A model generated the notes under the pieces. It saw nothing but the letters and a program-made list of their open reading frames with translations. It made no database searches and had not been told where the DNA came from. A DNA stretch of 64,000 bases from Candidatus Omnitrophota bacterium (GTDB taxonomy: Bacteria; Omnitrophota; Omnitrophia; Omnitrophales; Aquincolibacteriaceae): NCBI GenBank assembly GCA_903856085.1, contig CAIOAT010000028.1, positions 2,676 to 66,675 of the forward strand, read 5' to 3'. Each line of letters begins with the position of its first letter. Within the stretch, counting starts at the first letter, position 1. The position numbers were made by a program, and so were the translations under genes. Positions 5,378 to 32,862 of the stretch are shown here, piece after piece.

Positions 5378-5381
5378 CTTT

Positions 5382-7619: not shown

Positions 7620-7678
7620 ACCGAACAAGAGGGAAGTCACTTCCGTCTTAATCACAGGACATCAAGGAGGAATTTTCA

Positions 7679-8422: not shown

Positions 8423-8477
8423 GGACGGACCTCCCGGGATCCGCGGAAGCGTCCCCGGGAGGATTTTGAGGGCTCTG

Positions 8478-9080
8478 ATGAAACTCATCGTTGGGCTTGG
8501 AAATCCCGGAGACGGATACGCCCGTACGCGGCATAACATCGGTCGCCGGCTTATCGAGTTCATCGTTAGAACAGAGAAAGTAAAACTTGCTTCCAAGAAG
8601 TCCTTGCAGTCGGCCCTAGCTTCGGTTTCGTGGAGTGGAGAACCGCTACAGCTGGCGCATCCGCTGACTTACATGAACCTTTCAGGCGAAGCAATAGCAG
8701 CCCTGGTGAAGTATTGGAAAGTCGCGGCAGACAAAGATCTTCTGGTGGTGGTCGATGATGTCGCGTTGCCGTTCGGAAAATTCCGTTTGCGAGGTGAAGG
8801 AAGTTCGGGCGGGCATAATGGGCTTGCCTCGATAGAAGAACATCTCGGAAGCCGTGAATATCCGAGGCTTCGGATCGGGATCGGTTCCTGCGAAAACAAA
8901 ACGATCGCAGCATCCGCGGGGCCGGATGAGTCGCTTCGGGATTATGTGCTTGCCCCGTTCAATGTCGCAGAAGAGAAACAGATGAAAAAGCTTCTCGAAA
9001 AGGGGATGGAAGCGTGCCACTCATGGGTTGCGGAGCCTTTGGCGAGGGCGATGAGCCGAGTTAATGCTGTGGCCTTGTAA
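8478..9080 (+). CDS. pth: peptidyl-tRNA hydrolase
   Basis: MKLIVGLGNPGDGYARTRHNIGRR N-terminus. The ORF track's longer 8277 start overlaps ctc and I reject it in favour of the ATG at 8478. Confidence 0.9.
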   Translation: MKLIVGLGNPGDGYARTRHNIGRRLIEFIVRTEKVKLASKKSLQSALASVSWSGEPLQLAHPLTYMNLSGEAIAALVKYWKVAADKDLLVVVDDVALPFGKFRLRGEGSSGGHNGLASIEEHLGSREYPRLRIGIGSCENKTIAASAGPDESLRDYVLAPFNVAEEKQMKKLLEKGMEACHSWVAEPLARAMSRVNAVAL

Positions 9081-17742: not shown

Positions 17743-18558
17743 ATGAAGACTATGGGGATCATTGCGGGGAATGGACGTTTTCCCATCCTGGTCGCAGAGG
17801 AAGCTAAGCGGGCGGGATACCGGATCGTAACCTGCGCTATTGAGCAGGAGGCTGAGCCTTGCTTAGAGAAACTCTCGGATGCTTTTTCGTGGGTCAAAGT
17901 CGGGGAGCTTAAAAAGCTTTCTAAATTTCTGAAGAGTGAAGGCGTTCACGAGGCTATCATGGCTGGCAAGATTGAAAAGGTGCGTTTCTTTAAAGAGAAC
18001 GTACGCCTCGATCTTGATATGATGGCGGTTCTTGTGAAATTGAGAGACCACAAGGATGACTCTCTTCTCGGCGGCATTGCGGATTATCTGTTTAAAAAAG
18101 GCATCGTTCTCCAGGATTCCACCTGCTTTCTCAAGAGTATGATGCCGGGACCGGGACTGCTTGGAAAAAAGAAGCCGTCCAATTCCGTGATGGACGACAT
18201 CGATTTTGGTTTTGGAATAGCACAGAAGATCGCCGGCGCGGACATCGGGCAGACGGTGGTCGTGAAGAATAAATCCGTGCTAGCGGTCGAGGCCATTGAA
18301 GGCACAGACGAAGCCATACGCCGAGGCGGGGCATTGGGTCGCGGGAAGATCGTTGCGGTAAAAGTAGCGAAACCCAACCAGGATATGCGTTTCGATGTGC
18401 CGGCCGTAGGACTCAAGACGCTGGAGGTCCTGATCGAAACGCATGCCGAGGCTTTTGCGTTTGAGGCCCATAAAACACTTTTTATCGGCAAAGATATTTT
18501 TATGGAAAAAGCTAATCGCGCGGGGATTGTTCTTTACGGAGTGAGCGACAGGCCTTGA
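17743..18558 (+). CDS. lpxI: UDP-2,3-diacylglucosamine hydrolase LpxI (DUF1009) family
   Basis: [12 protein letters not shown]-terminus and the RFDVPAVG motif near the C-terminus. Position after lpxA. 271 aa. Confidence 0.7.
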
Positions 18559-20150
18559 AAGATGAAACTATGAATAGTGATAAAAAAAGATTCTCCGGCG
18601 GGCTGCAACGCGAGACTCAGGAGCTCGGGGTGCTCTATGAGATTACCCGACATATGAGTGCGCCGGTCCCACTTGAAGACCGGATGAGAAAAGTGTTAGA
18701 TGTTCTTCATGAAAAAATGGGCATGCACCGTGGGACTTTGACCCTCGTTGATGCAGACAGTGAAAGCCTCACGATCGAGATCGCCCACGGTCTTGATGAC
18801 CAGGCAAAGAAGAAAGGCCGATATAAAATCGGCGAGGGGATCACGGGCAAGGTCGTGGAGGCGGGAGAGCCTATTGCGGTCCCTAACATCGGAGAAGAGC
18901 CTCTTTTTCTCAATCGCACCGGTGCGCGGAAGGATTTCCGCCGTAACCGTATCGCGTTCATCTGCGTTCCCATCAAGATCGATCAGGAGACCATCGGCGC
19001 TTTGAGCGTAGATCGGCTTTTCGAAGGGAATGTTTCGCTGGATGAGGACCTGAGACTCTTGACCATCATCAGCTTCATCATTGCGCAAGCCGTCGCGAAC
19101 TATCGGCTCCGCGAAAAAGAAAAAGTGAAGCTTCAGTTCGAGAATGTTGAGTTGAAGCGCGAGCTTGCCAAAAAATTCCATCCGACTAATGTGATCGGTA
19201 AAAGCAAACGCATGGAAGAAGTTTATGAGGCCATTGAAATGGTAAGTCAGACGCGCTCGACCGTGCTCCTGCGGGGCGAAACGGGAACCGGGAAAGAGCT
19301 TGTGGCACATGCGATCCATTACGGGAGTTTTCGCTCGAAGGGACCGTTTGTGAAAGTGTCCTGCGCTGCGTTGCCGGAGACGCTTCTTGAGAGCGAGCTT
19401 TTTGGGTATGAAAAGGGTGCCTTTACGGGAGCCTTGGCTAAAAAGTTAGGGCGTTTTGAGATGGCAGACGGCGGAACGTTGTTTCTCGATGAGATCGGTG
19501 ATATCTCAGCGTCGATGCAAGTCAAGCTTTTGCGGGCGCTCCAGGAGAGAGAATTCGAACGCGTGGGCGGAACCCAAACAGTTCGTGTGGACGTCCGTGT
19601 GATTGCTGCGACGAACCGTGATCTTGAAAAGGCGATGCAGGAAAAAAAGTTCCGGGAAGACCTCTACTACCGGCTTAACGTGGTGCCGATACTCCTTCCA
19701 CCCTTGAGGGAAAGGAGGGAAGATATCCCCCTCTTGGTTGCGCATTTTTTGAAACAAACGAGTCTCGAGAGCAATAAAAAAGCTCGTTATGTTTCCGATG
19801 AGGCCATGGCTTATCTGATGAACTACTATTGGCCCGGGAATATCCGGGAACTGCAGAATGCTATCGAGCGAGCCGTCATTCTTTGTAAAACGGATACCCT
19901 TGAGGCGGACCTTTTTCCAATTCCCGGAGAAAAAGGACACCCCGCGGCGATTCATTTTAAACCTGTGCGGGTTGCCGATGCACCCCCTGGAGAAAACAGC
20001 TCATTGGCTTCGGCGGTCGAAATTCTTGAAAAGAGTCTGATTCAGGAGGCTCTTCGTTCTCAGGGGGGGAACCAGCGCAAGGCGGCTAAGGTTCTTGGCG
20101 TGACGGAGCGCATTCTGGGGTATAAAATCAAGAACTACGGGCTGAAGTAA
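18555..20150 (+). CDS. sigma-54-dependent transcriptional activator with N-terminal GAF domain (NifA-like) and C-terminal Fis-type HTH
   Basis: GAF region ([24 protein letters not shown]). AAA+ Walker [15 protein letters not shown] motif, [16 protein letters not shown]-terminal [28 protein letters not shown]. Confidence 0.85.
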
Positions 20151-20250
20151 GCGATTCGACAAAAATGTAGGCAGTTGCTCTTAGGAAACAATTTTGTAGC
20201 TTTACCTTAGGGCCTAAAGGAAGTTTCCCTCAGGTAAAGAGTTTTTGACT

Positions 20251-20266
20251 TGGCACAAAATTTGCA
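20251..20266 (+). promoter_or_regulatory. sigma-54 promoter (-24 TGGCAC / -12 TTGCA) for glnN
   Basis: Exact TGGCAC-N5-TTGCA about 85 nt upstream of the ATG at 20351. Confidence 0.6.
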
Positions 20267-20350: not shown

Positions 20351-22492
20351 ATGTGCGGCGATAACGCTTGTCAGTGCGGTTGTAAAAAAGTGGATGTGAC
20401 GAAGATCTTTGGAAGCAATGTTTTTAATGACAGGACCATGAGAGAACGCCTCCCGAAGGAAACCTACAAGGCCCTCAAGAAAACGATCCAGCAAGGGCTT
20501 CCGCTTTCTCCCGAGGTGGCCAACGTTGTTGCAAACGCGATGAAGGATTGGGCTATCGAAAAAGGCGCGACGCATTATACCCACTGGTTTCAGCCACTCA
20601 CGGGACGGACTGCGGAAAAACATGACTCTTTTATTTCTCCGACTGACGATGGCAGCGTGATCATGGAGTTCTCCGGGAAACAATTGGCCCAGGGCGAACC
20701 GGATGCGTCGTCATTTCCGAGCGGTGGTCTTCGTTCTACCTTTGAAGCGCGGGGTTATACGGCGTGGGATTGCACCTCTCCCGCATTCCTCAAGGAGGAT
20801 GCTTCGGGGAATGTAACGCTCGCTATTCCGACGGCGTTCTGCTCTTATACAAGTGAAGCGCTTGACAAGAAAACGCCACTTCTCCGTTCCATGGAAGCGG
20901 TTTCTCGACAGGCTGTTCGCGTGCTAAAAGCGCTTGGCAACAAGACTGCAAAACGTGTGACTGCGACGGTGGGTCCTGAGCAGGAATACTTCCTGATCGA
21001 TAAGACCTGCTATGAAAAGCGCCTCGACTTGATCGTTTCCGGGAGAACGCTTTTTGGTGCTGCGTCGCCCAAGGGGCAGGAGCTTGAGGATCAGTACTTC
21101 GGCGCAATCAAAGACCGGATTGCCGACTTTATGAGGGATCTGGATATCGAGCTCTGGAAGATGGGGGTCTCTTCCAAGACTAAACACAACGAAGTGGCAC
21201 CTGCGCAGTATGAAATGGCACCGATCTTCTCCACGACCAACATTGCGGCGGACCACAACCAGCTTGTGATGGAGACCATGCAGAAAGTGGCGCTCCGCCA
21301 TGATCTCGTGTGCCTTCTTCATGAGAAACCGTTCGCGGGTGTGAATGGTTCTGGCAAGCATAATAACTGGTCACTTTCGACCGATGACGGGCAGAATCTT
21401 CTGGAACCGGGGAAGACCCCTTCCGAGAACGAGCAGTTCCTGATCTTTGTGAGCGCCCTTCTCATGGCCGTGGATCGTCATGCAGACAAACTTCGGGCAA
21501 GTTGCGGCAATCCTGGCAACGATCTTCGCCTTGGCGCAAATGAAGCACCTCCGGCCATCATCTCCGTATTTATGGGCGATGAGTTTACCGAGATCTTGGA
21601 AGGTATCGCTAAAGGTAAAAAAGTCGAATCCCGAGGCCAGAGCTTTCTTCATATCGGGGTCGATGCTTTACCGCCTCTTCCCAAGGACAATACCGATCGT
21701 AACCGTACCTCGCCTTTCGCGTTTACGGGCAACAAATTCGAGTTCCGCATGGTCGGCTCTTCAGCCTCCATTTCCGGTCCGAATATTGTAATCAATACTA
21801 TTGTTGCGGAAGCGCTTGACGAGATCGCAACGCGTCTTGAGAAAGCCGGTAAAAATGGCCTTAACAAGGAAGCGGGTGCGATCGTTCGTGACGCCGTGAA
21901 AAAACATGGGCGCATTATTTTTAACGGGAACAATTACTCGGACGAGTGGGTTGCGGAAGCCAAGAAACGCGGTCTGCCGAACATCAAGACCGGTATCGAT
22001 GCTCTGGCCACCATGGCAACGCCTCAAGCGGAAAAGCTCTTTGATAAGTATCAGGTCTTGAGTCCCAAAGAGCTCCATTCTCGCTACGAAATCTATCTGG
22101 AGACTTATGTGAAGCATGTGAATATCGAGGCACAGGCGTCCGTCCAGATGGTCAAGCGGCTCTTCATTCCTGCGGGCATGAAGTTCGCGGCCGAGCTTGC
22201 AGGAGCTATTGGCGTTCTGAAAGCCGCTTCGGCGCCGGCTACGGTTCAAAAAGAATTACTCTCCACTGTGAGCGGTCTTTTGTCGGGGGCGTCGGAAAAA
22301 CTCGCGGTACTTGAAACGGCGATTGAAAAGGCGCATCACTTGGCCGATGTGGTCAAACGTGCCGAAGCGTTTCGTGACAAAGTGGTCGTGGCGATGAACG
22401 CTCTTCGCAAGGATATCGATGCTCTTGAGGGTGTGACTGCCACGGAGTACTGGCCTGTGCCCACCTACGCAGAAATGCTTTTTAAGCTTTAG
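20351..22492 (+). CDS. glnN: glutamine synthetase type III (GlnN)
   Basis: 713 aa. N-terminal [22 protein letters not shown]...[26 protein letters not shown] is characteristic of GSIII. AGGGAGG SD. Confidence 0.9.
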
Positions 22493-22711: not shown

Positions 22712-22726
22712 TGGCACGCCTTTTGC
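22712..22726 (+). promoter_or_regulatory. sigma-54 promoter for amt-glnK pair 1
   Basis: Exact TGGCAC-N5-TTGCT about 105 nt upstream of the ATG at 22831. Confidence 0.6.
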
Positions 22727-22830
22727 TTACTCTATAAGTGTGCGTGAATACAACGGGTTTTTTATTGCATCGAAAATACAAAAATGTGCAACAAATCTGT
22801 AAGTTTCGACTTTTAAAGGAGGATGAAACG

Positions 22831-24159
22831 ATGCGAAAATTAAGAGTGTGGTTCTTGGGGGCGACAGGGTTTCTGGCGCTTATGGGAGTTTCGAAACTGG
22901 CGCTGGCCGCGGGGACAGTCGCTCCGGTCATTAATACCGGGGACACGGCCTGGGTATTGATTTCCGCTGGGCTTGTATTCTTAATGACACCGGGCCTGGC
23001 GTTCTTCTACGGGGGGTTGGTCCGGAAAAAGAACATGCTTTCTGTCCTTATGCAATGTTTTATGCTCATGTGCATCATCACGCTTCAGTGGGTGATGTTT
23101 GGCTACAGCCTTTCGTTCGGGCCGGATATAAAGGGGATTATCGGAAACTTGAGCTGGGCAGGACTTCACGGAGTCGGGATAACACCTTTCGCGGATTATT
23201 CAGCGACTGTTCCGCATCAGGCTTTTATGATCTATCAAGCGATGTTCGCCATCATCACCCCAGGCTTGATCCTGGGTGCTTTCGCGGAAAGGATGAAATT
23301 TTCCGCGTTTGTGGTCTTCTCGCTTCTTTGGGCCACATTCGTTTATGATCCAGTTTGCCACTGGGTATGGGGGGTGGGTGGTTTCCTGAGAAACTCAGGA
23401 GCTTTAGATTTTGCAGGCGGTACGGTGGTTCATATTAATGCGGGTGTTGCGGCTTTAGTCTGTGCGATCGTGCTGGGCAAAAGAAAAGGGTACCCTAGCC
23501 ATATGTCGCCTCCGCACAATCTCCCGTTCGCGGTGCTTGGCGCGGGACTTTTGTGGTTCGGTTGGTTCGGATTTAACGGGGGAAGTGCTTTGGGCGCTAA
23601 TGGCTTGGCCACCAGCGCGCTTGTGGTGACGCATGTCGCCGCTGCCGCTGCAGGCCTGACCTGGTCCCTGTTGGAATGGAAGATCAGCTCCAAGCCTACC
23701 ATGCTCGGAATGATCACGGGTGCTGTCGCCGGCCTTGTCGCCATTACGCCTGCAGCAGGATTCGTGGGTCCCATGGACGCCATTTGGATCGGTGTTGGAG
23801 TTTCAGTGATCTGCTATTTCTTTGTGGCTGTGGTCAAAGCCAAGTTTGGCTATGACGATTCACTGGACGCTTTTGGCGTGCACGGTGTTGGCGGAATCTG
23901 GGGGGCTTTGGCCACGGGTCTTTGGGCCACGAAAGCTGTCAATCCTGCCGGGAATAACGGGCTCTTCTACGGGAACCCCGGACTTTTTCTGATCCAGCTA
24001 AAAGCTGTGGTCATTACCATTGTCTATTCATTCATCGTTTCATTCGTTCTTCTGAAGATCGTGGATTTGGTGATAGGTCTACGCGTTTCAGAGGATGAAG
24101 AACGTATCGGGCTTGATCTCACGCAGCATCGTGAGTCTGGCTACACCATGCTGGATTAA
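22831..24159 (+). CDS. amt: ammonium transporter Amt/AmtB (copy 1)
   Basis: Signal peptide, then DTAWVLISAGLVFLMTPGLAFFYGG, Amt twin-His region, and C-terminal GLDLTQHRESGYTMLD. AAAGGAGG SD. The track's 22738 start is rejected. Confidence 0.9.
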   Translation: MRKLRVWFLGATGFLALMGVSKLALAAGTVAPVINTGDTAWVLISAGLVFLMTPGLAFFYGGLVRKKNMLSVLMQCFMLMCIITLQWVMFGYSLSFGPDIKGIIGNLSWAGLHGVGITPFADYSATVPHQAFMIYQAMFAIITPGLILGAFAERMKFSAFVVFSLLWATFVYDPVCHWVWGVGGFLRNSGALDFAGGTVVHINAGVAALVCAIVLGKRKGYPSHMSPPHNLPFAVLGAGLLWFGWFGFNGGSALGANGLATSALVVTHVAAAAAGLTWSLLEWKISSKPTMLGMITGAVAGLVAITPAAGFVGPMDAIWIGVGVSVICYFFVAVVKAKFGYDDSLDAFGVHGVGGIWGALATGLWATKAVNPAGNNGLFYGNPGLFLIQLKAVVITIVYSFIVSFVLLKIVDLVIGLRVSEDEERIGLDLTQHRESGYTMLD

Positions 24160-24169
24160 GGAGGAAACC

Positions 24170-24511
24170 ATGCGCTACATCATCGCGATCATTCAACCGG
24201 ATCGGCTAGACGAGGTGCTCCAGATCCTTGAAGAAAAAGAGATCCATCTTGTTACCGTGACCAATGTCCTGGGGCGCGGTCGTCAAAAAGGGATCTCGGA
24301 GGTTTATAGAGGGCACAAGGAAGGTGGCCGGCTCTTGAAAAAAGTCAAACTGGAGATTGCCGTCAATGATGAATATGTGCAGGTTACGATCGACGCGATT
24401 ACCCAGGGTGCTCGGACCAATCACATCGGGGATGGCAAGATCTTCGTCCTCGATCTTAAAGAGTGCTTTCGCATTCGCACGGGTGAGATCGGTAAGATAG
24501 CGATCGGGTGA
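24170..24511 (+). CDS. glnK: nitrogen regulatory protein P-II (GlnK-type, amt-linked), copy 1
   Basis: 113 aa MRYIIAIIQP... with B-loop GRGRQKG, T-loop ...VYRG..., and C-terminal GDGKIFV...IRIRTGE. AAGGAGG SD overlaps the amt stop. Confidence 0.9.
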   Translation: MRYIIAIIQPDRLDEVLQILEEKEIHLVTVTNVLGRGRQKGISEVYRGHKEGGRLLKKVKLEIAVNDEYVQVTIDAITQGARTNHIGDGKIFVLDLKECFRIRTGEIGKIAIG

Positions 24512-24601: not shown

Positions 24602-24617
24602 TGGCACATCTCTTGCA
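24602..24617 (+). promoter_or_regulatory. sigma-54 promoter for amt-glnK pair 2
   Basis: Exact TGGCAC-N5-TTGCA about 130 nt upstream of the ATG at 24749. Confidence 0.6.
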
Positions 24618-24748
24618 GTCTAGTCTATGGCAGCGCGGTTTCTTTTCTGAGCGCAGAATAGAAGGGAATTTTTTTGTCCAAAAGCCTACAAAAATGTATG
24701 ACGAATTCGTCGAAAAGAGGATCTGTCGACAAAAAAGGGGGAGTTCTG

Positions 24749-26077
24749 ATGCGGAAAAAAAGTAAGTATTTTTGGGGGAGTGCAATTTTTTTTATGCTTC
24801 TTGGTGCATCCCAAACAGCCTGGGCTGCAAGTCCCGCAGTTCCGGCGATTAGCGGCGGGGATACCGCATGGGTTCTTATCTCGGCGGCCCTGGTATTCTT
24901 GATGACACCCGGTCTGGCTTTTTTCTATGGTGGGCTTGTTCGCAGGAAGAACATGCTTTCCATCCTGATGCAGTGCTTCATGCTGATATGTATGGTGACG
25001 CTTCAATGGGTCCTTCTCGGCTATAGTTTAGCGTTCGGGCCTGATGTGAAGGGTCTGATCGGTAACTTGAGCTGGGCGGGTCTTCAGGGTGTGAGTCTGG
25101 ATCCATTCGCGGCTTATTCGTCCACGATTCCACACCAGCTTTTTATGATCTATCAAGCGATGTTCGCGATCATTACGCCAGGCCTGATCCTGGGCGCTTT
25201 CGCGGAGCGCATGAAATTTTCTGCGTTCTGTGTTTTTTCAATCCTTTGGGCGACCTTGGTTTATGATCCGGTGGCTCACTGGATGTGGGGTGTCGGCGGT
25301 TTCTTAAGAAATATGGGGGCTCTCGATTTTGCCGGAGGGGTTGTGGTTCACATCAACGCGGGCATTGCCGCTCTTGTCTGCGCCTTGGTCCTTGGAAAAA
25401 GAAAAGGTTATCCTCAGCATATGTCGCCTCCTCACAATCTACCGTTCGCTGTTTTAGGCGCCGGACTTCTTTGGTTTGGTTGGTTCGGATTCAATGGCGG
25501 CAGCGCGCTAGGCGCTAATCGGATCGCTGTCAGCGCTGTGGTTGTTTCTCATATCGCAGGGGCAGCTGCCGGACTGACTTGGGCGCTGCTGGAATGGAAG
25601 TTCAACTCCAAGCCCACCATGCTCGGTATGATCACCGGCGCCGTTGCGGGGCTTGCTACGATCACTCCCGCTGCGGGTTTTGTGGGGCCGATCGCTGCGA
25701 TCTGGATAGGGATTATAGCCTCGGTAGTCTGCTATTTTTGTGTGGCGGTGGTCAAAGCAAAGTCTGGTTATGATGATTCGCTGGATGCTTTCGGCGTGCA
25801 TGGGGTCGGCGGGATCCTGGGGACTTTGGCTACGGGTTTTTGGGCGTCAAAAGTCGTCAATCCTGCCGGCAATAACGGGCTCTTTTACGGGAACCCGGGA
25901 CTCTTTCTGATCCAGTTGAAAGCCGTGGTCATTACCATTGTCTATTCATTTATCGTCTCTTGGGTCCTTCTGAAGATCGTGGATGCCTTCATGGGTCTAC
26001 GCGTTTCTGAGGACGAAGAACGTATCGGGCTTGATCTCACGCAGCATCGTGAGTCTGGCTACACCATGTTGGATTAA
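24749..26077 (+). CDS. amt: ammonium transporter Amt/AmtB (copy 2, about 80% identical to copy 1)
   Basis: Same motifs as copy 1 with a divergent signal peptide. AAGGGGGAG SD. Confidence 0.9.
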   Translation: MRKKSKYFWGSAIFFMLLGASQTAWAASPAVPAISGGDTAWVLISAALVFLMTPGLAFFYGGLVRRKNMLSILMQCFMLICMVTLQWVLLGYSLAFGPDVKGLIGNLSWAGLQGVSLDPFAAYSSTIPHQLFMIYQAMFAIITPGLILGAFAERMKFSAFCVFSILWATLVYDPVAHWMWGVGGFLRNMGALDFAGGVVVHINAGIAALVCALVLGKRKGYPQHMSPPHNLPFAVLGAGLLWFGWFGFNGGSALGANRIAVSAVVVSHIAGAAAGLTWALLEWKFNSKPTMLGMITGAVAGLATITPAAGFVGPIAAIWIGIIASVVCYFCVAVVKAKSGYDDSLDAFGVHGVGGILGTLATGFWASKVVNPAGNNGLFYGNPGLFLIQLKAVVITIVYSFIVSWVLLKIVDAFMGLRVSEDEERIGLDLTQHRESGYTMLD

Positions 26078-26620: not shown

Positions 26621-28342
26621 TTATCCGGTGATGAGGAGATGACGTTTGGAATCAAGCCTACGGGCGAGGCTTTGGAACACATCTTGGCGCATGAGCCTCA
26701 TCAGGCCGCTGCGTTTCGTAGCTCCAATAAGAACCGTTTCAACGTTCAGTTCGTTCGCGGCCATCGCGATCAATTTTCCTGCATCCTCTCCAGCCTGCCA
26801 GACAGGAACTGCGGTAATCCCTTGTTTTTCCATTTCATTCTGGGCGTGTGCCAAGAGTTCAATGGATTCCTTCGAAGGTTCGACCTCTTCCGGGAGTTCC
26901 GTGAAATCGGGCATGGGTTCCACGTAGCTCAGATAGATGGAATTTTCTCCTCTGGCTTTTACCCGGAGAGCCGCTTCATCCAGTAAAACCGGGTTAAATG
27001 TGCGAAGTGCGACCAGGGACGAACTATGGTAAAGCGAAGCGAGTGCTTTGGCCTCGGAAACCGTGAGAACATTAATGTTCGGAATGAAAGCAGAAACCGG
27101 GGCTCCGGCGAAGTGTTTGCCCATGAATCTCAGCGTGAATCCGACGACTAGTACGGACGTGGCAAAGATCAACGCACTCCTTTTTTCATAGGCGATGGTG
27201 ATCTCCACGAAAAAGAGGATAACGGTTGCGAAAAAGAGAAGTGCTCGCTCCCAGGTTTTGAGCAAGATCTTGTAATTCGTTGCGCAGGACCCAAGATTGA
27301 TCGTAATGGCACCCACGACACCGATGGCGTAAAGGGCCGCCAGTCTTACCAAATTATGTTCGATCACTAGTACGAGGGCGGGAACAGCCGCAGCGACGAT
27401 GAGTGCGAGCCATGGCATCCCGAATTTATTGAGCTTTGCAAAAAGGGGCGGCAGTTCGCCGTCTTTGGCCATGAGGAACTGGATATTCACAAGGTCGGTG
27501 ATCGCTGTGTTTACAGCCGAAAGCAGCAGAAAACCGAAAATGATGGAAATAACTTGTCCATACCAGGGTGCAATGTAGTGATTCGCAAGGGCGCGCAGCA
27601 TATCCTCAGTGTGGTTTCCGAGATTTGGGATTGCGTTCATGGCAATGCCCAAAATGAAGGTGAGGACTGACACCTCGATCAATACGGGCCAAATGGCACG
27701 CTTGGAAGTCTTTGCGACCGGTTCCACCATAATGCCGGTCATATTGGCAATGGCCTCAACACCCGAGAGTGCCAGCACGATCCCCACAAAGCTTGCCCAG
27801 TTCTTGAAGAGTCCGCCTGTGGGCAGCGTAAATTGAGCGTGAGAAAGCGAGGGGATCGTGAAGAAGACAAGGGCGAGGACAGACGCCACGGCTGCGATCC
27901 CGATCAGGGAAGCAATATCGCCGCCCTTGGTCGGTCCCATCCAGTTGATAGCGCCGATTGATACGATCGCGCCGATAGCCCAAAGTTCCGGATGGGGCAG
28001 GTTCAAATAATGAAAAGCATCCAACGCGCTGAGCGATGCCGTCACGACATAATCCGCAATTAAGAGGAATGCCCCTAGCATGGCCAGATTCTGGGAACGG
28101 TGTTTGACCGAAGAGTACACACCGCCGCCGTCAGGGTAGATGCGGCAGATGACCATGTAGCAAATGCCGATCAGGGCGGTCAGGCCGGACATTAGCCCGA
28201 GGAAAAGCCAGGAAGCATGTCCGACCAAGGCAAATGCGATACCGAGGACATAGGCCTTGCTTGTGCCCCAGTCGCCATAAAGCATGGCGGCGGCTTGATA
28301 CCATTTGAGTTCACGGGGTCTTTCAACCTTTTTAGCGAACAT
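26621..28342 (-). CDS. APC-superfamily permease fused to a C-terminal universal stress protein (UspA-like) domain
   Basis: About 420-aa 12-TM-like region with APC-like SGVEAIANMTG...KRAI. The C-terminal about 140 aa is USP-like (LNVETVLIGATKRSGLMRLMRQDVFQSLARRLDSKRHLLITG). Confidence 0.7.
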   Translation of the reverse strand: MFAKKVERPRELKWYQAAAMLYGDWGTSKAYVLGIAFALVGHASWLFLGLMSGLTALIGICYMVICRIYPDGGGVYSSVKHRSQNLAMLGAFLLIADYVVTASLSALDAFHYLNLPHPELWAIGAIVSIGAINWMGPTKGGDIASLIGIAAVASVLALVFFTIPSLSHAQFTLPTGGLFKNWASFVGIVLALSGVEAIANMTGIMVEPVAKTSKRAIWPVLIEVSVLTFILGIAMNAIPNLGNHTEDMLRALANHYIAPWYGQVISIIFGFLLLSAVNTAITDLVNIQFLMAKDGELPPLFAKLNKFGMPWLALIVAAAVPALVLVIEHNLVRLAALYAIGVVGAITINLGSCATNYKILLKTWERALLFFATVILFFVEITIAYEKRSALIFATSVLVVGFTLRFMGKHFAGAPVSAFIPNINVLTVSEAKALASLYHSSSLVALRTFNPVLLDEAALRVKARGENSIYLSYVEPMPDFTELPEEVEPSKESIELLAHAQNEMEKQGITAVPVWQAGEDAGKLIAMAANELNVETVLIGATKRSGLMRLMRQDVFQSLARRLDSKRHLLITG

Positions 28343-28484
28343 GGAATCAGCCCCGCGCTTTCAGGGGGAGAGAAAAAAGGGGGATAGTTAGAGAACGGGA
28401 CAAGAAAATAGCCTTCATGAAAAACTCCTCTCTTTCGCCTACGGGGTTAGCTGACGGGCTAAGGTCGAGGATCTTACCTCTTAG

Positions 28485-28500
28485 GGCCTGATTTCAGGCC
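28485..28500. promoter_or_regulatory. perfect 16-bp palindrome GGCCTGATTTCAGGCC in the divergent intergenic region
   Basis: Seen in sequence. The related 10-mer CCTGATTTCA recurs at about 26499 beyond the 3' end of the same APC-USP gene. Confidence 0.4.
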
Positions 28501-28566
28501 GCTAATTAGCCCCTTATGGTTATTGGGTCCCCCGTTCCGCGATCCGCTGCGGACTCGGCATATAAG

Positions 28567-28589
28567 CGAGCGACTATACGCTCTTTTTT
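28567..28589 (+). terminator. intrinsic-terminator-like hairpin GAGCG-actata-CGCTC plus T7 inside the 557-bp intergenic region
   Basis: Seen in sequence. Plus orientation, about 310 nt upstream of the fusion gene. Confidence 0.4.
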
Positions 28590-28830
28590 TGAAAAATCAA
28601 CAGTCCTTACAACAACCTTTGTGGAGGTTTTCTCGGAGCATGGGATGTGTTTAAACTACTCCTTATTCCACGGATGCAATTTTGGTGCCAACACTTTGCT
28701 CCTGTGCGTTCGAGAGCAGTATTCAATAAAGATGCGGTGATATTACAAAAATGAAGATTGGAGACAAAAATGTCAGAATCTTGAAAAGCCCGCAGGATTT
28801 TTAAGGGGTGGATCAATAGGGGAAGCAAGT

Positions 28831-28845
28831 TGGCATGGTAATTGC
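28831..28845 (+). promoter_or_regulatory. sigma-54-type promoter (TGGCAT-N5-TTGCC) for the APC-PII fusion operon
   Basis: GG and GC at the canonical 12-nt spacing, about 55 nt upstream of the ATG at 28900. Confidence 0.5.
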
Positions 28846-28899
28846 CATATTCTGATGAGACCATCTCAAGAATTGAACTGAGACCAAAGGAGAATATCA

Positions 28900-30789
28900 A
28901 TGGCAAAACAAACGATTACATCAAGAGATATCAAGCCAACGCTTGGACTTTTTGGTGCCACTATGAATGCTATGGCGCTGATCGCGCCAGGGGCGTTTTT
29001 GTGGATCACCTATCAGCTGCAAGCCGCGGCGACTGCGCCTAACGGCATGTCCGTGGCCAGCGACATTTGGCCGGGCATTGTGCTCGCATTGATCGTGGCT
29101 TTTCTTACGGCGCTTGCCTACGCCCAGCTTGCAAAGCTTTACCCAGAGGCCGGGTTCGCGAGTTGTTGCTACTTTGCAGAAAAAGCATTCTTGGACAAGG
29201 CCGGGGCCAGACATAAAACTCATAATACCCCGACCTCTTTGGCGCGCTTTGCCAAACTCCTCACGGGTTGGTCTGCGCACCTGTTCTACTGGGTTTATCC
29301 GGGAATCATGGTCGCTTTCATGGCGACGCTTATCGGATACATCTACACACAGTTTACAGGGCACACTCTCTCCGCGGATACTTTGACACTGATTGGGATT
29401 GCTTTCGCGGGGATCACTGGCTATATCGCTTTCCGCGGGGTGAGCGGTTCTACTAAGGCGTCGATCTGGATCAACATCATTCAATTGACGGCCCTGGTCA
29501 TCTTCAGTGCACTGGCCATTTACTATCGCATGACAAATCCTCAGCATGCGACTCAATGGGCGTTTACGAGTGGCTTTGATATTTTCAAGATCCACTCTCT
29601 CCAAGGGGTGCTGGTGCAATCGACCATAGCCATTTTGATCCTGGTCGGTTTCGAAAGTTGCACGGCCCTGTCTGCAGAAACGAAAGATCCAGGGAAGACG
29701 ATTCCAAAAGCCATTATTCTTTCCCTGCTCATTCAAGGACTTGCGGCGTATCTTTTGCAATATTTTGCGGCGGGTCTCATGGTCAACGAGCATTTGACCG
29801 CGATCACAGGCACTCCAGCGGTCACAGTAACCGGCATGGCTGCGGCGGCTGCATCGAGCGCTCCTATCGGAGACCTTGCGAAGCTGCTCGGGGATAACGT
29901 CCTCCCCGGGATTGGATTTGGATTGATGATCACCATGGCTCTCACGGTAGCCATTGCGATCGTCGGGACGACCCTGAGCTGTATGAATACGGCGGTACGC
30001 GTGACCTGCGGGATGGCGGAAGATAGGGAACTACCGGAGATGTTGGGTTTCATGCATGCCGGGTTCAGCACGCCTCATATCGCTCTGTGGGTATTGGTCG
30101 TGGTTTCCTCGATTATTGCGGGGATAGGCGTGAGATCGGTTGTGGGTTTGACCGGTATTACCCTTGCTTCGAACTTGGGAACATTCATCTTGTACGGGTT
30201 GACCTGCATTTGGACCATTCTTGCGTTCAAGGATCGTAAAGATTTTAGTGCCATCAAGCACGGATGGATCCCGGCGCTCGGGTTGATCGCTAACATTGTC
30301 ATGGTGATCGGCATCCTCTATCTGTATGTCATAGGGAATGCGGACGCGAAGGCGGAGGCCCGGATCTGTTTCATTATTGCCGGCGCATGGGGCGTGATCA
30401 GCGTGTTTTATGTTCTCTTGACCAGCGTTCAAAAAACCTATCGCGTCAAAGTAGTGACGTGTGTTATTCGTCCGGAACAGCTTGGAGACGTGGCCGCGGC
30501 GCTCAGAAAAGAATCCCTCGTGGTCGGCATGACCGTAACCGACGTCCGCGGCTTCGGACGTCAACATGGCGAGACCGAGGCGGATCTGCCGGTCCATGAA
30601 GATACGATCCGGTTCCAACCGAAAGTGAAAATTGAGGTGCTTGTCAGGGACTGGGACGTCAATAAGACTATGCAAGTGATCACGGGCGCCGTACGGACGG
30701 GGAATATCGGTGACGGAAAGATCATCGTGTTTGATGCTTCGAGCGCCATGCGTATCCGTACGGGGGAAAAAGGCGTGTACGCGCTTTAA
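28900..30789 (+). CDS. APC-superfamily permease fused to a C-terminal GlnB/PII signal-transduction domain
   Basis: Residues 1 to about 510 are a multi-TM APC-like permease (GFESCTALSAETKDPGKTIPKAI). The last about 115 aa are a PII domain (YRVKVVTCVIRPEQL...MTVTDVRGFGRQHGE...PKVKIEVLV...GNIGDGKIIVFD...MRIRTGE). AAGGAG SD. Confidence 0.75.
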   Translation: MAKQTITSRDIKPTLGLFGATMNAMALIAPGAFLWITYQLQAAATAPNGMSVASDIWPGIVLALIVAFLTALAYAQLAKLYPEAGFASCCYFAEKAFLDKAGARHKTHNTPTSLARFAKLLTGWSAHLFYWVYPGIMVAFMATLIGYIYTQFTGHTLSADTLTLIGIAFAGITGYIAFRGVSGSTKASIWINIIQLTALVIFSALAIYYRMTNPQHATQWAFTSGFDIFKIHSLQGVLVQSTIAILILVGFESCTALSAETKDPGKTIPKAIILSLLIQGLAAYLLQYFAAGLMVNEHLTAITGTPAVTVTGMAAAAASSAPIGDLAKLLGDNVLPGIGFGLMITMALTVAIAIVGTTLSCMNTAVRVTCGMAEDRELPEMLGFMHAGFSTPHIALWVLVVVSSIIAGIGVRSVVGLTGITLASNLGTFILYGLTCIWTILAFKDRKDFSAIKHGWIPALGLIANIVMVIGILYLYVIGNADAKAEARICFIIAGAWGVISVFYVLLTSVQKTYRVKVVTCVIRPEQLGDVAAALRKESLVVGMTVTDVRGFGRQHGETEADLPVHEDTIRFQPKVKIEVLVRDWDVNKTMQVITGAVRTGNIGDGKIIVFDASSAMRIRTGEKGVYAL

Positions 30790-30834
30790 GTTAAGAATAG
30801 ACTCTGCCATTCACAGAAAGCGAGGGATGAAGTC

Positions 30835-31173
30835 ATGAAAAAGTTAGAGATCATCGTAAAGCCAGGAAAAAGTTCCGTGGTGCGCGAAGCGATCGAAGCT
30901 GCGGGTTACTCAGGGATCACGGCTTCGCAAGCGGAGGGACACGGAACCCAAAAGGGGTTGTCCAAGCCACAGAGCGCAGGGAACTATCGCTTGGAATTGG
31001 TTCCTAAGGTTCGTCTGGAAGTGGTTGTTCCGGATGCTGCGGTGGAACCCGTCATTGAAGCTGTGATAAAGGCGGCAAAAACGGGCGAGCCCGGGGACGG
31101 CAAGATTTTTGTTTCGGATGTTAAGGAAGTGATCCGAATCCGTACTGGTGAACGTGGTGAGAAGGCAGTTTGA
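30835..31173 (+). CDS. divergent standalone PII-like protein (non-canonical B/T-loop GHGTQKG)
   Basis: 112 aa MKKLEIIVKP...GITASQAEGHGTQKGLSKPQSAGNYRLELVPKVRLEVVVPD...GEPGDGKIFVSDVKEVIRIRTGE aligns along the full length of GlnB. GAGGGA SD. Confidence 0.7.
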   Translation: MKKLEIIVKPGKSSVVREAIEAAGYSGITASQAEGHGTQKGLSKPQSAGNYRLELVPKVRLEVVVPDAAVEPVIEAVIKAAKTGEPGDGKIFVSDVKEVIRIRTGERGEKAV

Positions 31174-31186
31174 TGAACGATTAGGT

Positions 31187-31432
31187 ATGAATGGGGTAAA
31201 TGAAATGCAGATCGAAGGCTCAGATCAAATAGGTAGCTTTAAGGTGGATCACGGAGGTCTTTCCAGAAAGGGGAAACTTCCGGAAGCGGTCCACGAATTG
31301 GAGAAGCAGATGATCGAAGAGGCCATGGCGCGTTCCGGGGGGAATCAGCGTCTGGCCTCCGAGATCCTCGGGATCACCGAACGCATGCTGGGTTACCGGC
31401 TAAAGAATTACGGTCTGAAGCCTTTCGTTTGA
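31187..31432 (+). CDS. small Fis-type HTH protein, resembling the detached C-terminal DNA-binding domain of a sigma-54 activator
   Basis: ...ELEKQMIEEAMARSGGNQRLASEILGITERMLGYRLKNYGLKPFV parallels the C-terminus of the 18555-20150 regulator. The start is uncertain: ATG 31187 or 31205, and the track uses GTG 31148. Confidence 0.5.
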   Translation: MNGVNEMQIEGSDQIGSFKVDHGGLSRKGKLPEAVHELEKQMIEEAMARSGGNQRLASEILGITERMLGYRLKNYGLKPFV

Positions 31433-31463
31433 AGATTAGTTAAAAATAAAAAAGGAGGAAGCA

Positions 31464-32804
31464 ATGGGAAAAATACAAAGAGGTTTGTTAGGTTTTTGGT
31501 TGATCGGGATGTGTCTTGCCCCAGGCGCTGTATTTGCCGAGACGACGAGTGAAGTCACAGCTCTGAAGGCGCAGATCGATGCGCTGAGCCGAAAGCTGGA
31601 AGCCATGGACAGTAAGATGATGACCATGGAAAAGCCGGCGCCCGGCGCGCAGACGGCCTATATTCCTCCGGCTCCCGCAGAGCAAGGGGGCGTTCTGCAT
31701 ACCGCCATGAAGGACATTCATATGGGTGGTTACGTGGAAACCCAATATCAGAATAAGATCGGACAACCGCAGCAGAACGGGAATGTGGGGCGTTCGCTCT
31801 CTGATAAGGCTGCCGATACCTTCTCTGTAAATGCGGCCAAGCTCTGGTTCGAGAAAGTGGCGAATCCTGAGGGCGGAGCCGGTTTTCGCATCGATATGAT
31901 GATGGGAAGCGACGTCCGTTACTACTTCAATAATTTCCAAAAAGATAATCTTGGGAATTCGAACAATGGCAGCAGCGGGGCAACGGCTTTTGCTTTCGAA
32001 CAGGCCTATGTTCAGTATATCGCGCCCTTGAGCTTCTGGTCCGGGAGCAAGATCCTGCCGCATAGCATCGATATCAAAGCTGGTAGGATGGTCACTTTAG
32101 CGGGCAACGAAGTGATCGAGGGATATCAGAACTGGAATATCAGCCGCTCGGTCTCTTTTGGTTATGCGATCCCTTTCACGCATACTGGGGTCAGGGCGAC
32201 CTATGCCTTGTTTAACGATTACCTGACCGTTTATCAGGGGATCAACAACGGTTGGGATAATGATATCGAGAACAATTCGTACAAGACCTTTGAGAATGCG
32301 TTCAGCTTCAGCCCACTCAAGGACGTCAAGTGGACTACGGCGACTTATTTTGGGCCTGAGAACAACGGCGCGAGTGGCGGAAAGCGTTTTCTGGCTACGA
32401 ACGTTCTGAGTTGGAATGCAACCAAGAAGCTTTCGTTTGCGGGTGAATTTGATATCGGCAATCAGCCTCGTGTTGATATCGCGCAGGATGGTGTGTTCCA
32501 TACCGCTCAATGGTTCGATTATGCCGCGTATGCCAGGTATCAATTCACTGAAAAGTTAGCCGCAGCTTATCGCATCGAAATGTTTGATGACAGCAATCGT
32601 TACCGGAACTGGACCAATGTCGGAACTGCTGGCGCTACCACGGATCTTGCCAATACTCTGACGCTGGAATACAAGCTCCATGAAAATATGATCGCCCGGG
32701 CAGAGTACCGGATCGATTATGCTCATGCCGGCGACGGAACGGTGTTTGGCGGAAATCATCAACAGAATACACTAGGCGGTTCGCTATCCTATGTGTTCGG
32801 CTAA
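31464..32804 (+). CDS. outer-membrane beta-barrel porin-like protein with N-terminal coiled coil
   Basis: Signal peptide (LAPGAVFA/ET), about 40-aa heptad-like segment, then about 380 aa with alternating aromatic/hydrophobic residues ending ...LSYVFG. AAGGAGG SD. The family assignment is by pattern only. Confidence 0.55.
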   Translation: MGKIQRGLLGFWLIGMCLAPGAVFAETTSEVTALKAQIDALSRKLEAMDSKMMTMEKPAPGAQTAYIPPAPAEQGGVLHTAMKDIHMGGYVETQYQNKIGQPQQNGNVGRSLSDKAADTFSVNAAKLWFEKVANPEGGAGFRIDMMMGSDVRYYFNNFQKDNLGNSNNGSSGATAFAFEQAYVQYIAPLSFWSGSKILPHSIDIKAGRMVTLAGNEVIEGYQNWNISRSVSFGYAIPFTHTGVRATYALFNDYLTVYQGINNGWDNDIENNSYKTFENAFSFSPLKDVKWTTATYFGPENNGASGGKRFLATNVLSWNATKKLSFAGEFDIGNQPRVDIAQDGVFHTAQWFDYAAYARYQFTEKLAAAYRIEMFDDSNRYRNWTNVGTAGATTDLANTLTLEYKLHENMIARAEYRIDYAHAGDGTVFGGNHQQNTLGGSLSYVFG

Positions 32805-32815
32805 GTAAAACGTGT

Positions 32816-32862
32816 CTGGGGGGAGGCAGCCCGCGAGTGCTGTCCTCCCCCAGTTTTATTTC
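32816..32862 (+). terminator. rho-independent terminator after the porin gene
   Basis: CTGGGGGGAGG-cagcccgcgagtgctgt-CCTCCCCCAG then TTTTATTT. Confidence 0.65.

Follow-up and report, generated by a model that had tools for sequence, protein, structure and literature searches.

Does a reading frame that resembles only the DNA-binding tail of a much larger regulator represent a gene of its own and, if so, what would an isolated DNA-binding domain do in the cell? The question arises in a window of 64,000 nucleotides from a Candidatus Omnitrophota bacterium (contig CAIOAT010000028.1; the window is the whole stretch of DNA that we analysed), which encodes both the regulator and the small protein:

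18555..20150, + strand: sigma-54 activator (NifA-like) with a GAF-AAA+-HTH_8 architecture, the only bEBP in the window
31205..31432, + strand: small stand-alone HTH_8 (Fis-type) gene, 75 aa from its most likely start

A small conserved gene behind PII

The open reading frame (ORF) is present as described in the first-pass annotation, and the peptide quoted there is correct. In its longest form it runs from a GTG at 31148 to the stop codon ending at 31432 and encodes 94 aa; initiation at the in-frame ATGs 31187 or 31205 would give products of 81 and 75 aa, respectively. ATG 31205 is most likely the true start because the lengths and N-termini of the homologues align there, which also led us to reject the GTG form as the true gene. 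Homologues are mostly 73-75 aa long and begin with M-[EQ]-I-[QE]-G-S-D-Q, corresponding to this ATG. It is located 31 nt past the PII stop codon with a GGGG 8 nt upstream, and SD-like sequences are found ahead of the conserved start. The reported overlap with the PII gene (30835-31173) holds for the longest ORF only and disappears when translation starts at ATG 31205.

HTH_8 (PF02954) is the sole domain found in the product (residues 49-88, E=2.1e-12, 47 bits for a cut-off of 22), and the match spans profile positions 3-42 of 42. The small protein indeed has neither an AAA+ nor a GAF part, and it is not an AAA+ sigma-54 activator, with no GAFTGA or GESGTGK motif near the ORF in any frame. A search with Rfam found no RNA element in or around the ORF; the sole match in the window is a c-di-AMP riboswitch elsewhere.

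The small gene is surrounded by the following features:

28900..30789, + strand: APC-family permease carrying a PII fusion at its C-terminus, which opens the operon (Pfam AA_permease_2; P-II, residues 517-623)
30835..31173, + strand: PII (GlnB/GlnK-family) gene directly upstream of the small gene (Pfam P-II, E=1.7e-28)
31464..32804, + strand: OmpL-like beta-barrel porin (BBP2), last gene of the operon (Pfam BBP2, E=6e-64)
32816..32861, + strand: G+C-rich hairpin and T-run past the porin gene, likely the end of the operon (read from the sequence)

The porin gene follows the small gene after a gap of 31 nt containing an AGGAGG ribosome-binding site, and no terminator-like site was found on the + strand between 30790 and 31464. 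This neighbourhood is widely kept. A PII gene is found directly 5′ of the small gene in all 15 distinct contexts, including those of the most divergent members P0072, P0077 and P0078. Of the 13 contexts in which the downstream sequence can be read, 12 have an OmpL-like (BBP2) porin gene 3′ of the small gene. The permease::PII fusion gene is retained in the L006, L009, L017 and P0072 contexts. In L091, the small gene follows PII and the porin is absent, while in L007 and L016 a terminator and a promoter intervene between PII and the small gene, and the HTH-porin pair is served by a sigma-54 promoter and a palindrome of its own. Based on these contexts, the predicted operon order is transporter (either Amt or the APC permease::PII fusion), PII, small HTH protein and outer-membrane porin. 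The upstream PII can be of two types, GlnK-like after Amt and a divergent PII after the permease::PII fusion, which are only ~38% identical; the N-terminal tail of the small protein does not covary with the type.

A search for homologous small ORFs in related genomes, as had been proposed, yielded 76 homologue clusters, all stand-alone, 56-94 aa long, carrying HTH_8 only and confined to Omnitrophota. Among the 185,579 species genomes scanned, the family is limited to about 10 species. The dN/dS of the core is 0.025-0.10 at a near-saturated dS of 0.4-1.9, and that of the N-tail is ~0.17. These ratios indicate that the small ORF is under strong purifying selection, and on this comparative evidence it is a functional, conserved gene of uncultured Omnitrophota with a product of 73-79 aa. 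Members of the family are currently annotated as 'hypothetical' or 'helix-turn-helix domain-containing protein'.

The ORF had also been suspected to be the remnant of a decayed regulator. A non-functional leftover, either a fragment of a pseudogenised regulator or a chance ORF, is a natural thought for a sequence that resembles just the last 48 aa of a far larger protein, and a similar-looking 59-aa ORF at L088 did turn out to be the tail of a full-length activator, cut off by a frameshift. We scanned six frames of the window and of the related loci for GAFTGA, Walker A and HTH_8 signatures. Within the window, GAFTGA and GESGTGK occur in the full-length activator only, and upstream of the small ORF no AAA+ remnant (GAFTGA, Walker A) is found in any frame, and we rejected the idea of a pseudogenised regulator. 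Stand-alone length, start and synteny are kept over the 76 clusters, and dN/dS is ~0.05-0.1 with near-saturated synonymous change. A leftover is thus effectively refuted by the conservation and selection analysis, and we consider its probability close to negligible.

A metagenome-wide profile search returned many matches of 55-130 aa. Many of these short HTH_8 library entries may be fragments, because nearly all near relatives in assembled genomes are the tails of proteins of >440 aa, and they were left out of the evidence.

Kinship with the activator tail and predicted fold

The small protein matches the last 48 residues of the activator with 29/48 identities (60%, BLASTP, E=1e-17), a resemblance that is far beyond chance and in agreement with the match noted in the first-pass annotation. 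By Pfam, the activator consists of GAF, Sigma54_activat, AAA_lid and HTH_8 domains. It scores 545.8 bits against the NifA equivalog TIGR01817 (cut-off 528.85). NifA controls nif genes through TGT-N10-ACA sites. The window and the related loci contain no nif genes, and the conserved site there is ACA-W4-TGT rather than the NifA-type TGT-N10-ACA.

Across the 185,579 species genomes, the top matches after the family itself are the C-termini of orthologues of this activator, with identities to the small protein of 59-67% in Omnitrophota and 44-58% in Planctomycetota. All of these tails are part of ORFs of >440 aa adjoining GSIII, amt or PII. The image of a severed tail is therefore right as an evolutionary description, since the nearest relatives outside the family are the tails of activator orthologues. 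Family members do not nest with the activator tail encoded in the same genome, to which they are 55-60% identical, compared to 62-67% for other Omnitrophota tails. In terms of sequence, the C-terminal domain of the NifA-like activator in this cluster has a DNA-binding-only paralogue in the small protein.

Small proteins and activator tails have the recognition-helix motif TERxLGY[RK] in common, invariant within both as TERMLGY[RK], at a resolution limited by the 48-aa length. The helix reads G-I-T-E-R-M-L-G-Y-R-L-K in the small protein and G-V/I-T-E-R-I/M-L-G-Y-K-I-K in the activator. A systematic difference is seen in helix C, which reads RLASEILG in the small protein and RKAAKxLG in the activator; because 1-2 basic residues are lost in the former, the affinity or specificity of the small protein may differ from that of the activator. 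A shared DNA specificity is plausible but not guaranteed.

In the AF2 model, residues 1-23 are disordered (pLDDT <50) and followed by three helices at 24-43, 48-55 and 59-69, all with pLDDT >90. The predicted fold is the three-helix Fis/NtrC-type DNA-binding domain consisting of helices B, C and D, without helix A. Among solved structures, it comes closest to the DNA-binding domains of the Aquifex sigma-54 activators Nlh2 (2m8g, E=3e-9) and NtrC1 (4l5e, TM 0.89, rmsd 0.7 Å over 43 residues), followed by Fis; the NtrC4 DNA-binding domain is also among the top PDB matches. The DNA-binding domains of Nlh2, NtrC1 and NifA, which lack helix A, have the same three-helix HTH_8 fold. The disordered segment ahead of helix B is reminiscent of the linker in NtrC1 and NifA, as described in PMC10590331. 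Unlike these domains, the small protein is free-standing: it is translated from a start codon of its own, carries a short conserved N-tail and is untethered to an AAA+ ring, so it would have no means of contacting sigma-54.

Sigma-54 promoters and a shared palindrome

A scan for sigma-54 promoters and the alignment of orthologous upstream regions delineated the following sites in the nitrogen cluster:

28831..28846, + strand: sigma-54 (-24/-12) promoter TGGCATGGTAATTGCC of the permease::PII - PII - HTH - porin operon (scan; 2 mismatches)
28675..28690, - strand: perfect sigma-54 promoter of the divergent permease-Usp gene (scan), sharing the palindromes at 28745-28773
28745..28773, no strand assigned: two ACA-W4-TG(T) palindromes, ACAAAAATGA and ACAAAAATGT, 19 bp apart
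20251..20266, + strand: sigma-54 promoter of the type III glutamine synthetase (GSIII) gene (scan; perfect TGGCAC-N5-TTGCA)
20159..20197, no strand assigned: palindrome pair ACAAAAATGT and ACAATTTTGT, 29 bp apart, invariant blocks in alignment A2
22712..22800, + strand: perfect amt1 sigma-54 promoter (22712-22727) with downstream palindromes at 22778-22787 and, degenerate, at 22791-22800
24602..24697, + strand: perfect amt2 sigma-54 promoter (24602-24617) with a downstream palindrome at 24688-24697

The operon promoter is an invariant block in alignment A3, and the orthologous operons in L006, L009 and L017 carry the perfect TGGCACGGGAATTGCT at this position. The palindromes at 28745-28773 are found 67-86 bp upstream of it, between the two divergent sigma-54 promoters, and those at 20159-20197 are 92 and 63 bp upstream of the GSIII promoter. 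In both alignments (A2 and A3), the palindrome is the only conserved upstream block besides the promoters. One palindrome-bearing sequence, TACAAAAATGTA, is found at 20155-20172 and 28760-28777.

Overall, a TACA-W4-TGTA palindrome is found at every sigma-54 promoter of the nitrogen cluster. The core ACAWWWWTGT is present 6 times in the window compared to 0.76 expected, a number reached in none of 100 shuffles, and 5 of the 6 copies are located at the cluster's sigma-54 promoters. Planctomycetota loci that have the activator without the small gene carry the same palindrome as pairs with a spacing of 29-30 bp, located 100-130 bp ahead of sigma-54 promoters and also upstream of the activator gene itself. 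Because the palindrome accompanies activator orthologues where the small gene is absent, it is most likely the enhancer site of the activator.

A NifA-type TGT-N10-ACA site formed between neighbouring palindromes was considered and rejected, since the spacing varies between N9 and N10 by locus while ACA-W4-TGT is constant. Palindrome-like matches within PII genes (for example 31103-31112) were discarded as well, being explained by the conserved GDGKIFV codons.

The arrangement with palindromes downstream of the promoter is found in other loci, in L003, L007, L010, L014 and L024 for the amt1 type and in L007, L010, L016 and L024 for the amt2 type. Promoter-downstream palindromes and the small gene co-occur in one closely related clade, so this co-occurrence is effectively a single observation.

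Possible roles of the small protein

A competitor for the activator's enhancer sites, one of the roles put forward in the first-pass annotation, would fit everything found here: the shared recognition helix, the conserved palindrome and the membership of the small gene in the regulon. We propose that the DNA-binding-only paralogue occupies the activator's sites and modulates the regulon, probably dampening it and possibly under the control of PII, and we give this explanation about an even chance. The small gene would be transcribed from the sigma-54 promoter of the nitrogen-scavenging operon, so that the protein would be made when the activator switches the regulon on. We infer from the almost identical recognition helices that it would bind, as a DNA-induced dimer, the same TACA-W4-TGTA palindromes as the activator. 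Having no ATPase, it could not activate, and competition with the activator or its displacement would most likely result in negative feedback or a ceiling on the regulon. The protein could also occupy the promoter-downstream palindromes in the amt1 and amt2 leaders. A stand-alone domain without helix A could, however, compete poorly if it is neither abundant nor assisted by a partner.

The known control of sigma-54 activators operates through their sensory or ATPase domains. The pairs NifL-NifA, PspA-PspF, HycA-FhlA and FleN-FleQ have the same outcome as proposed here, the dampening of a sigma-54 activator by a small or accessory protein encoded in or near the regulon. NifL, PspA, HycA and FleN bind the activator protein (AAA+ or sensory domain), whereas the small protein is proposed to occupy the enhancer DNA. 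Full-text literature searches returned no description of a DNA-binding-only paralogue occupying the enhancers of sigma-54 activators, and nothing relevant on nitrogen regulation in Omnitrophota or on HTH_8-only proteins. A conserved copy of the DNA-binding domain encoded by the regulon itself would extend control to the enhancer by serving as a natural dominant-negative or feedback element. A regulatory model of nitrogen assimilation for Omnitrophota and Planctomycetota would follow as well, with PII, sigma-54 promoters, TACA-W4-TGTA enhancers and a NifA-like activator as its components; to our knowledge, there is almost no experimental genetics in either phylum. With a protein of 75 aa and a site of 12 bp, the prediction is cheap to test in vitro. 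Even a minor local repressor would provide a useful annotation for a family that now has only generic labels.

PII may control the small protein, given its invariable position beside a PII gene. In cyanobacteria, PII binds PipX, which then co-activates NtcA, and in Bacillus GlnK binds TnrA. These systems likewise tie a regulator in a nitrogen regulon to PII, which possibly controls the DNA-binding activity here too. PipX (Tudor-like/KOW fold) and TnrA (MerR-type) have no sequence or fold relation to the small protein, and its interaction with PII, unlike theirs, is suggested by gene adjacency only. One form of this idea is an adaptor whose disordered N-tail binds the adjacent PII, which would sequester, release or oligomerise the small HTH protein according to 2-oxoglutarate/ATP/ADP status; this could be combined with competition or act alone, as an independent repressor or co-activator. 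The adjacency persists even where the porin is lost (L091) or where a terminator and a promoter lie in between (L007/L016), the N-tail is under purifying selection despite its predicted disorder, and a domain lacking helix A is expected to need help with dimerisation, according to PMC10590331. Nevertheless, the variable PII type and a tail that does not track it make a specific PII-partner pair less convincing, the more divergent members do not conserve the tail, and the two genes may be adjacent simply because the regulon's usual operon is an amt/transporter-glnK unit. We regard the adaptor as unlikely. Its combination with competition is a PII-gated blocker that competes for the enhancer sites or ties up the activator's DNA-binding domain in dead heterodimers, with PII bound to the N-tail setting its availability or oligomeric state. 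This specific version is quite unlikely; if true, it would represent a new control of sigma-54 activators at the enhancer DNA instead of the ATPase, and a new class of PII target.

The effect on the regulon could also be positive. IHF or Fis assist enhancer-promoter looping at other promoters, and Fis binds its core YA-W5-TR by compressing the minor groove. An architectural helper or co-activator would bend the A-tract-centred palindromes, or heterodimerise with activator domains, and aid the formation of a short loop (60-130 bp). The enhancer sites are unusually near the promoters (63-92 bp), the CA-W4-TG site with its AT-rich centre resembles the Fis core, the fold is Fis-like, and no other conserved block fit for an IHF site was seen in alignments A2 and A3. 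However, Planctomycetota manage with the same sites and the activator, so the small protein would not be needed for looping in general, and with a single conserved class of motif, helper and activator would have to share or compete for sites. We consider a helper improbable. The suggestion of a standalone Fis-like nucleoid protein, with global and largely non-specific DNA binding, did not hold up well and appears very unlikely. Like Fis and Fis-like proteins such as PA4853 (PDB 6m10), the protein is a small stand-alone HTH_8 protein of ~75 aa, Fis structures are among its fold matches, and the site predicted for it, CA-W4-TG around an A/T centre, belongs to the same broad type as the Fis core. 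But it falls far below the cut-offs of the NCBIfam Fis equivalogs (NF001659, 25.1 bits for a cut-off of 99; NF002517, 27.3 bits for a cut-off of 122). The AF2 model shows neither the N-terminal beta-hairpin arm nor the helix A that form the stable dimer core of Fis, and, in an alignment by eye, T, E, M, G and Y stand in place of the Fis DNA-contact residues N84, R85, T87, R89 and K90. While Fis has a global, growth-phase-regulated nucleoid role, the small gene is found in a narrow clade and, rather than being constitutive, lies inside a sigma-54 nitrogen operon.

Reading frame, conservation and origin of the small HTH gene

On the + strand, the longest frame of the small HTH gene opens with GTG 31148, ends with its stop at 31432 and encodes 94 aa; in-frame ATG codons lie at 31187 (81 aa) and 31205 (75 aa). 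The first-pass annotation had placed a Fis-type HTH ORF here, and the frame indeed encodes a Pfam HTH_8 domain (Fis-type HTH) at residues 49-88 (E=2.1e-12, 47 bits, gathering score 22). The overlap also reported with the preceding PII gene (30835-31173) holds for this longest frame and disappears with the start supported by homologues, which are mostly 73-75 aa long and begin M-[EQ]-I-[QE]-G-S-D-Q, equivalent to ATG 31205. This codon lies 31 nt 3′ of the PII stop, with GGGG 8 nt upstream.

HTH_8-only proteins are a known class, of which Fis is the best-known member. Full-text literature searches turned up no account of a sigma-54 activator with a regulon-encoded paralogue reduced to DNA binding, or of how nitrogen is regulated in Omnitrophota. 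The evidence for the small gene and for its cis-regulatory surroundings is solid; the function of its product we infer, in a form open to test.

Small homologues do exist in relatives: among 5.8 billion proteins searched, 76 clusters match (E 5e-45 to 2e-9), all of 56-94 aa, with HTH_8 as the sole annotated Pfam domain in all except the weakest match and other domains in none. Named members come from Candidatus Omnitrophota MAGs and are currently labelled only 'hypothetical' or 'helix-turn-helix domain-containing protein'. The family alignment has 22 invariant columns, every one within the C-terminal 50 residues. Among 11 orthologues (Nei-Gojobori), dN/dS is 0.025-0.10 in the 48-codon core (median 0.09 over 52 pairs; dS 0.4-1.9, two pairs saturated) and about 0.17 in the N-terminal 22 codons. 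Neither GAFTGA nor Walker A remnants turned up near the ORF in any of the six frames, and the only AAA+ signatures in the window are those of the sigma-54 activator (18555-20150), which consists of GAF, sigma-54-interaction AAA+, lid and HTH_8 domains. Given a conserved stand-alone family, low dN/dS and no AAA+ remnant, we therefore reject the earlier suggestion of a remnant of a decayed regulator; conservation and selection effectively refute a pseudogene or chance ORF, to which we leave a very small probability.

In L088, at 4632-6147 and 6997-8968, the orthologues of the activator and of the permease::PII fusion are each broken by frameshifts, probably a long-read assembly error or genuine pseudogenes, leaving a spurious 59-aa 'stand-alone' HTH ORF. 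It shows why counts of small HTH_8 proteins from metagenome libraries need caution.

The match to the activator's C-terminus noticed at first reading covers its last 48 residues (BLASTP, 29/48 identities, 60%, E=1e-17). In a scan of 185,579 species, one genome each, full-length family members occur in about 10 Omnitrophota species only, and after them rank the C-terminal ends of proteins orthologous to the window's activator, all in ORFs of about 500-590 aa adjoining type III glutamine synthetase (GSIII), amt and PII genes. Identity over the 48-aa core is 59-67% for Omnitrophota tails and 44-58% for Planctomycetota tails, and both the small family and these activator tails have the recognition helix T-E-R-M/I-L-G-Y-[RK] without exception. 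The description as a severed activator tail is therefore right as evolutionary history and, judging from these comparisons, the small HTH gene is a DNA-binding-domain-only paralogue of the activator lineage. The activator of its own genome is not its closest relative, so the duplication is not recent.

Gene order, promoters and palindromes

The window carries a nitrogen-assimilation cluster.

Genes of the nitrogen-assimilation cluster
18555-20150, +, activator
20351-22492, +, GSIII
22831-24159 and 24170-24511, +, amt-glnK pair 1
24749-26077, +, amt-glnK pair 2, with a 113-aa PII gene called downstream in a 100%-identical contig
26621-28342, −, APC permease with Usp domain
28900-30789, +, APC permease fused to PII domain (permease::PII)
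30835-31173, +, free PII
31205-31432, +, small HTH
31464-32804, +, BBP2/OmpL-like porin
33168 onwards, +, carA, carB

We compared 15 distinct contexts (the window, L003/4, L005/15, L006, L007/8/16, L009, L010, L012, L013, L014, L017, L018, L089/90, L091/92 and the P0072 contigs). In all 15 the small HTH gene directly follows a PII gene, and in 12 of the 13 with readable downstream sequence a BBP2 porin comes directly 3′ of it (L018 stops at the small gene; the short contig L013 has no gene annotated downstream). The exception is L091. Before PII stands either the permease::PII fusion or a divergent Amt, and the subtype of PII changes with this gene. In the fusion the PII domain is C-terminal (residues 517-623), and a separate, divergent PII gene follows; the fusion, a hard-wired pairing of transporter and PII, is kept in L006, L009, L017 and the P0072 contigs. 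The most divergent family member, P0078, has a PII-HTH spacer of 167 nt with a different palindrome, GGACAAAGAGTTTTGTCC, not ACA-W4-TGT (L091 628-647, L092 919-938), and no porin gene after it.

Sigma-54 promoters (perfect: TGGCAC-N5-TTGCW), palindromes and terminator
20251, perfect promoter of GSIII; palindromes 20159 and 20188, 92 and 63 bp upstream of TGGCAC
22712, perfect promoter of amt1; palindrome 22778 and degenerate copy 22791, 66-79 bp downstream of TGGCAC
24602, perfect promoter of amt2; palindrome 24688, 86 bp downstream of TGGCAC
28690, −, perfect promoter of the permease-Usp gene
28831, two-mismatch promoter TGGCATGGTAATTGCC of the permease::PII - PII - HTH - porin unit; palindrome 28764 and one-mismatch copy 28745, flanked by the divergent promoters and 67-86 bp upstream of promoter 28831
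32816-32861, strong hairpin and T-run 3′ of the porin gene, read from sequence

With a promoter at 28831, no terminator-like site from 30790 to 31464 and a hairpin after the porin gene, these four genes most likely form one sigma-54 transcript. Orthologues of promoter 28831 are perfect in L006, L009 and L017. L007/L016 differ in having a terminator after PII and a separate sigma-54 promoter for the HTH-porin pair.

The roughly 320-nt leader of the permease-Usp gene holds a c-di-AMP riboswitch (28421-28570, −; Rfam RF00379, 67.8 bits, E=1e-13), and this leader sequence is also conserved at 7850-7960 of L003. The permease, possibly a K+ importer like KimA/YdaO, may be controlled by both sigma-54 and c-di-AMP.

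The palindrome ACAWWWWTGT (fuller consensus TACAAAAATGTA) occurs six times in the window compared to 0.76 expected, a count reached by 0 of 100 shuffles, and five of the six copies are at sigma-54 promoters. In alignments of orthologous upstream regions, palindromes and -24/-12 elements are essentially the sole invariant blocks. All related Omnitrophota loci have it at equivalent places. It is also present at Planctomycetota loci with an activator orthologue and without the small gene, where two copies, 29-30 bp apart, precede sigma-54 promoters by 100-130 bp; a further pair upstream of the activator gene suggests autoregulation. Because the activator is the sole DNA-binding protein common to all these clusters, the palindrome most likely serves it as enhancer (UAS).

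While all Planctomycetota copies are upstream, those at amt1 and amt2 in Omnitrophota with the small gene lie in the 5′ leader, 52-87 bp downstream of TGGCAC, with no upstream copy at the same promoters (window 22778-22800, 24688-24697; L003 3917; L007 5983, 7881; L010 139, 2063; L014 2119; L018 1704; L024 8708, 8721, 10614). They might act as enhancers from downstream, or as operators.

With 545.8 bits the activator exceeds the cut-off of the NCBIfam NifA equivalog (528.85 bits), and automatic annotation would call it NifA. No nif genes are close to it, its Omnitrophota and Planctomycetota orthologues (L025, L030, L032, L034-L039) adjoin GSIII, amt and glnK, and at these loci TACA-W4-TGTA pairs replace the NifA site TGT-N10-ACA.

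Fold and possible roles of the small protein

An AlphaFold2 model built on the family alignment has residues 1-23 disordered (pLDDT below 50) and three helices (24-43, 48-55, 59-69; pLDDT above 90). Its best solved relatives are the DNA-binding domains of the Aquifex sigma-54 activators Nlh2 (2m8g, E=3e-9) and NtrC1 (4l5e; TM 0.89, rmsd 0.7 Å over 43 residues), followed by Fis and NtrC4. Helix A of Fis and NtrC has no counterpart in the model. In sigma-54 activators, a DNA-binding domain that lacks helix A (NtrC1, NifA) stays monomeric in solution and forms dimers only when bound to palindromic DNA, whereas one that has helix A (NtrC, NtrC4) is a stable dimer (PMC10590331).

In the simplest model, the small protein, having the activator's recognition helix and no ATPase, would be made from an activator-dependent operon, dimerise, as predicted, only on the palindrome, and compete with the activator for TACA-W4-TGTA sites, which would feed back negatively on nitrogen-scavenging genes or cap them. 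The small protein may also sit on the promoter-downstream sites of amt1 and amt2. A Fis-like dimer, with its closely spaced recognition helices, is expected to target close half-sites around an A/T centre, and by this analogy the palindrome would be a suitable target. Against competition stand the weak binding of helix-A-less domains when alone (PMC10590331), a helix C less basic than the activator's, and the co-occurrence of promoter-downstream sites and small gene within one related clade only. We give about even chances that the small protein binds the activator's sites and modulates its regulon, with antagonism the more likely sign.

The invariant PII adjacency and an N-tail under selection though disordered would fit a PII-controlled adaptor, which we nonetheless consider improbable as the upstream PII subtype varies. 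There is similarly an outside chance of an architectural helper for short-range looping, although Planctomycetota manage without the protein. The standalone Fis-like nucleoid protein proposed at first reading is very unlikely: the small protein falls below both NCBIfam Fis equivalog cut-offs, its taxonomic range is narrow, and its gene sits in a nitrogen operon.

Another HTH_8-only ORF, of 73 aa, is flanked by a glutamine synthetase gene and gltB in the unrelated uncultured bacterium MFD03726 (L067, 10185-10406), within an activator-amt-PII-GS cluster, and has a recognition helix of Fis/NtrC type, NRNTLRSKLKKYG. Nitrogen clusters may have acquired small genes of Fis type more than once.
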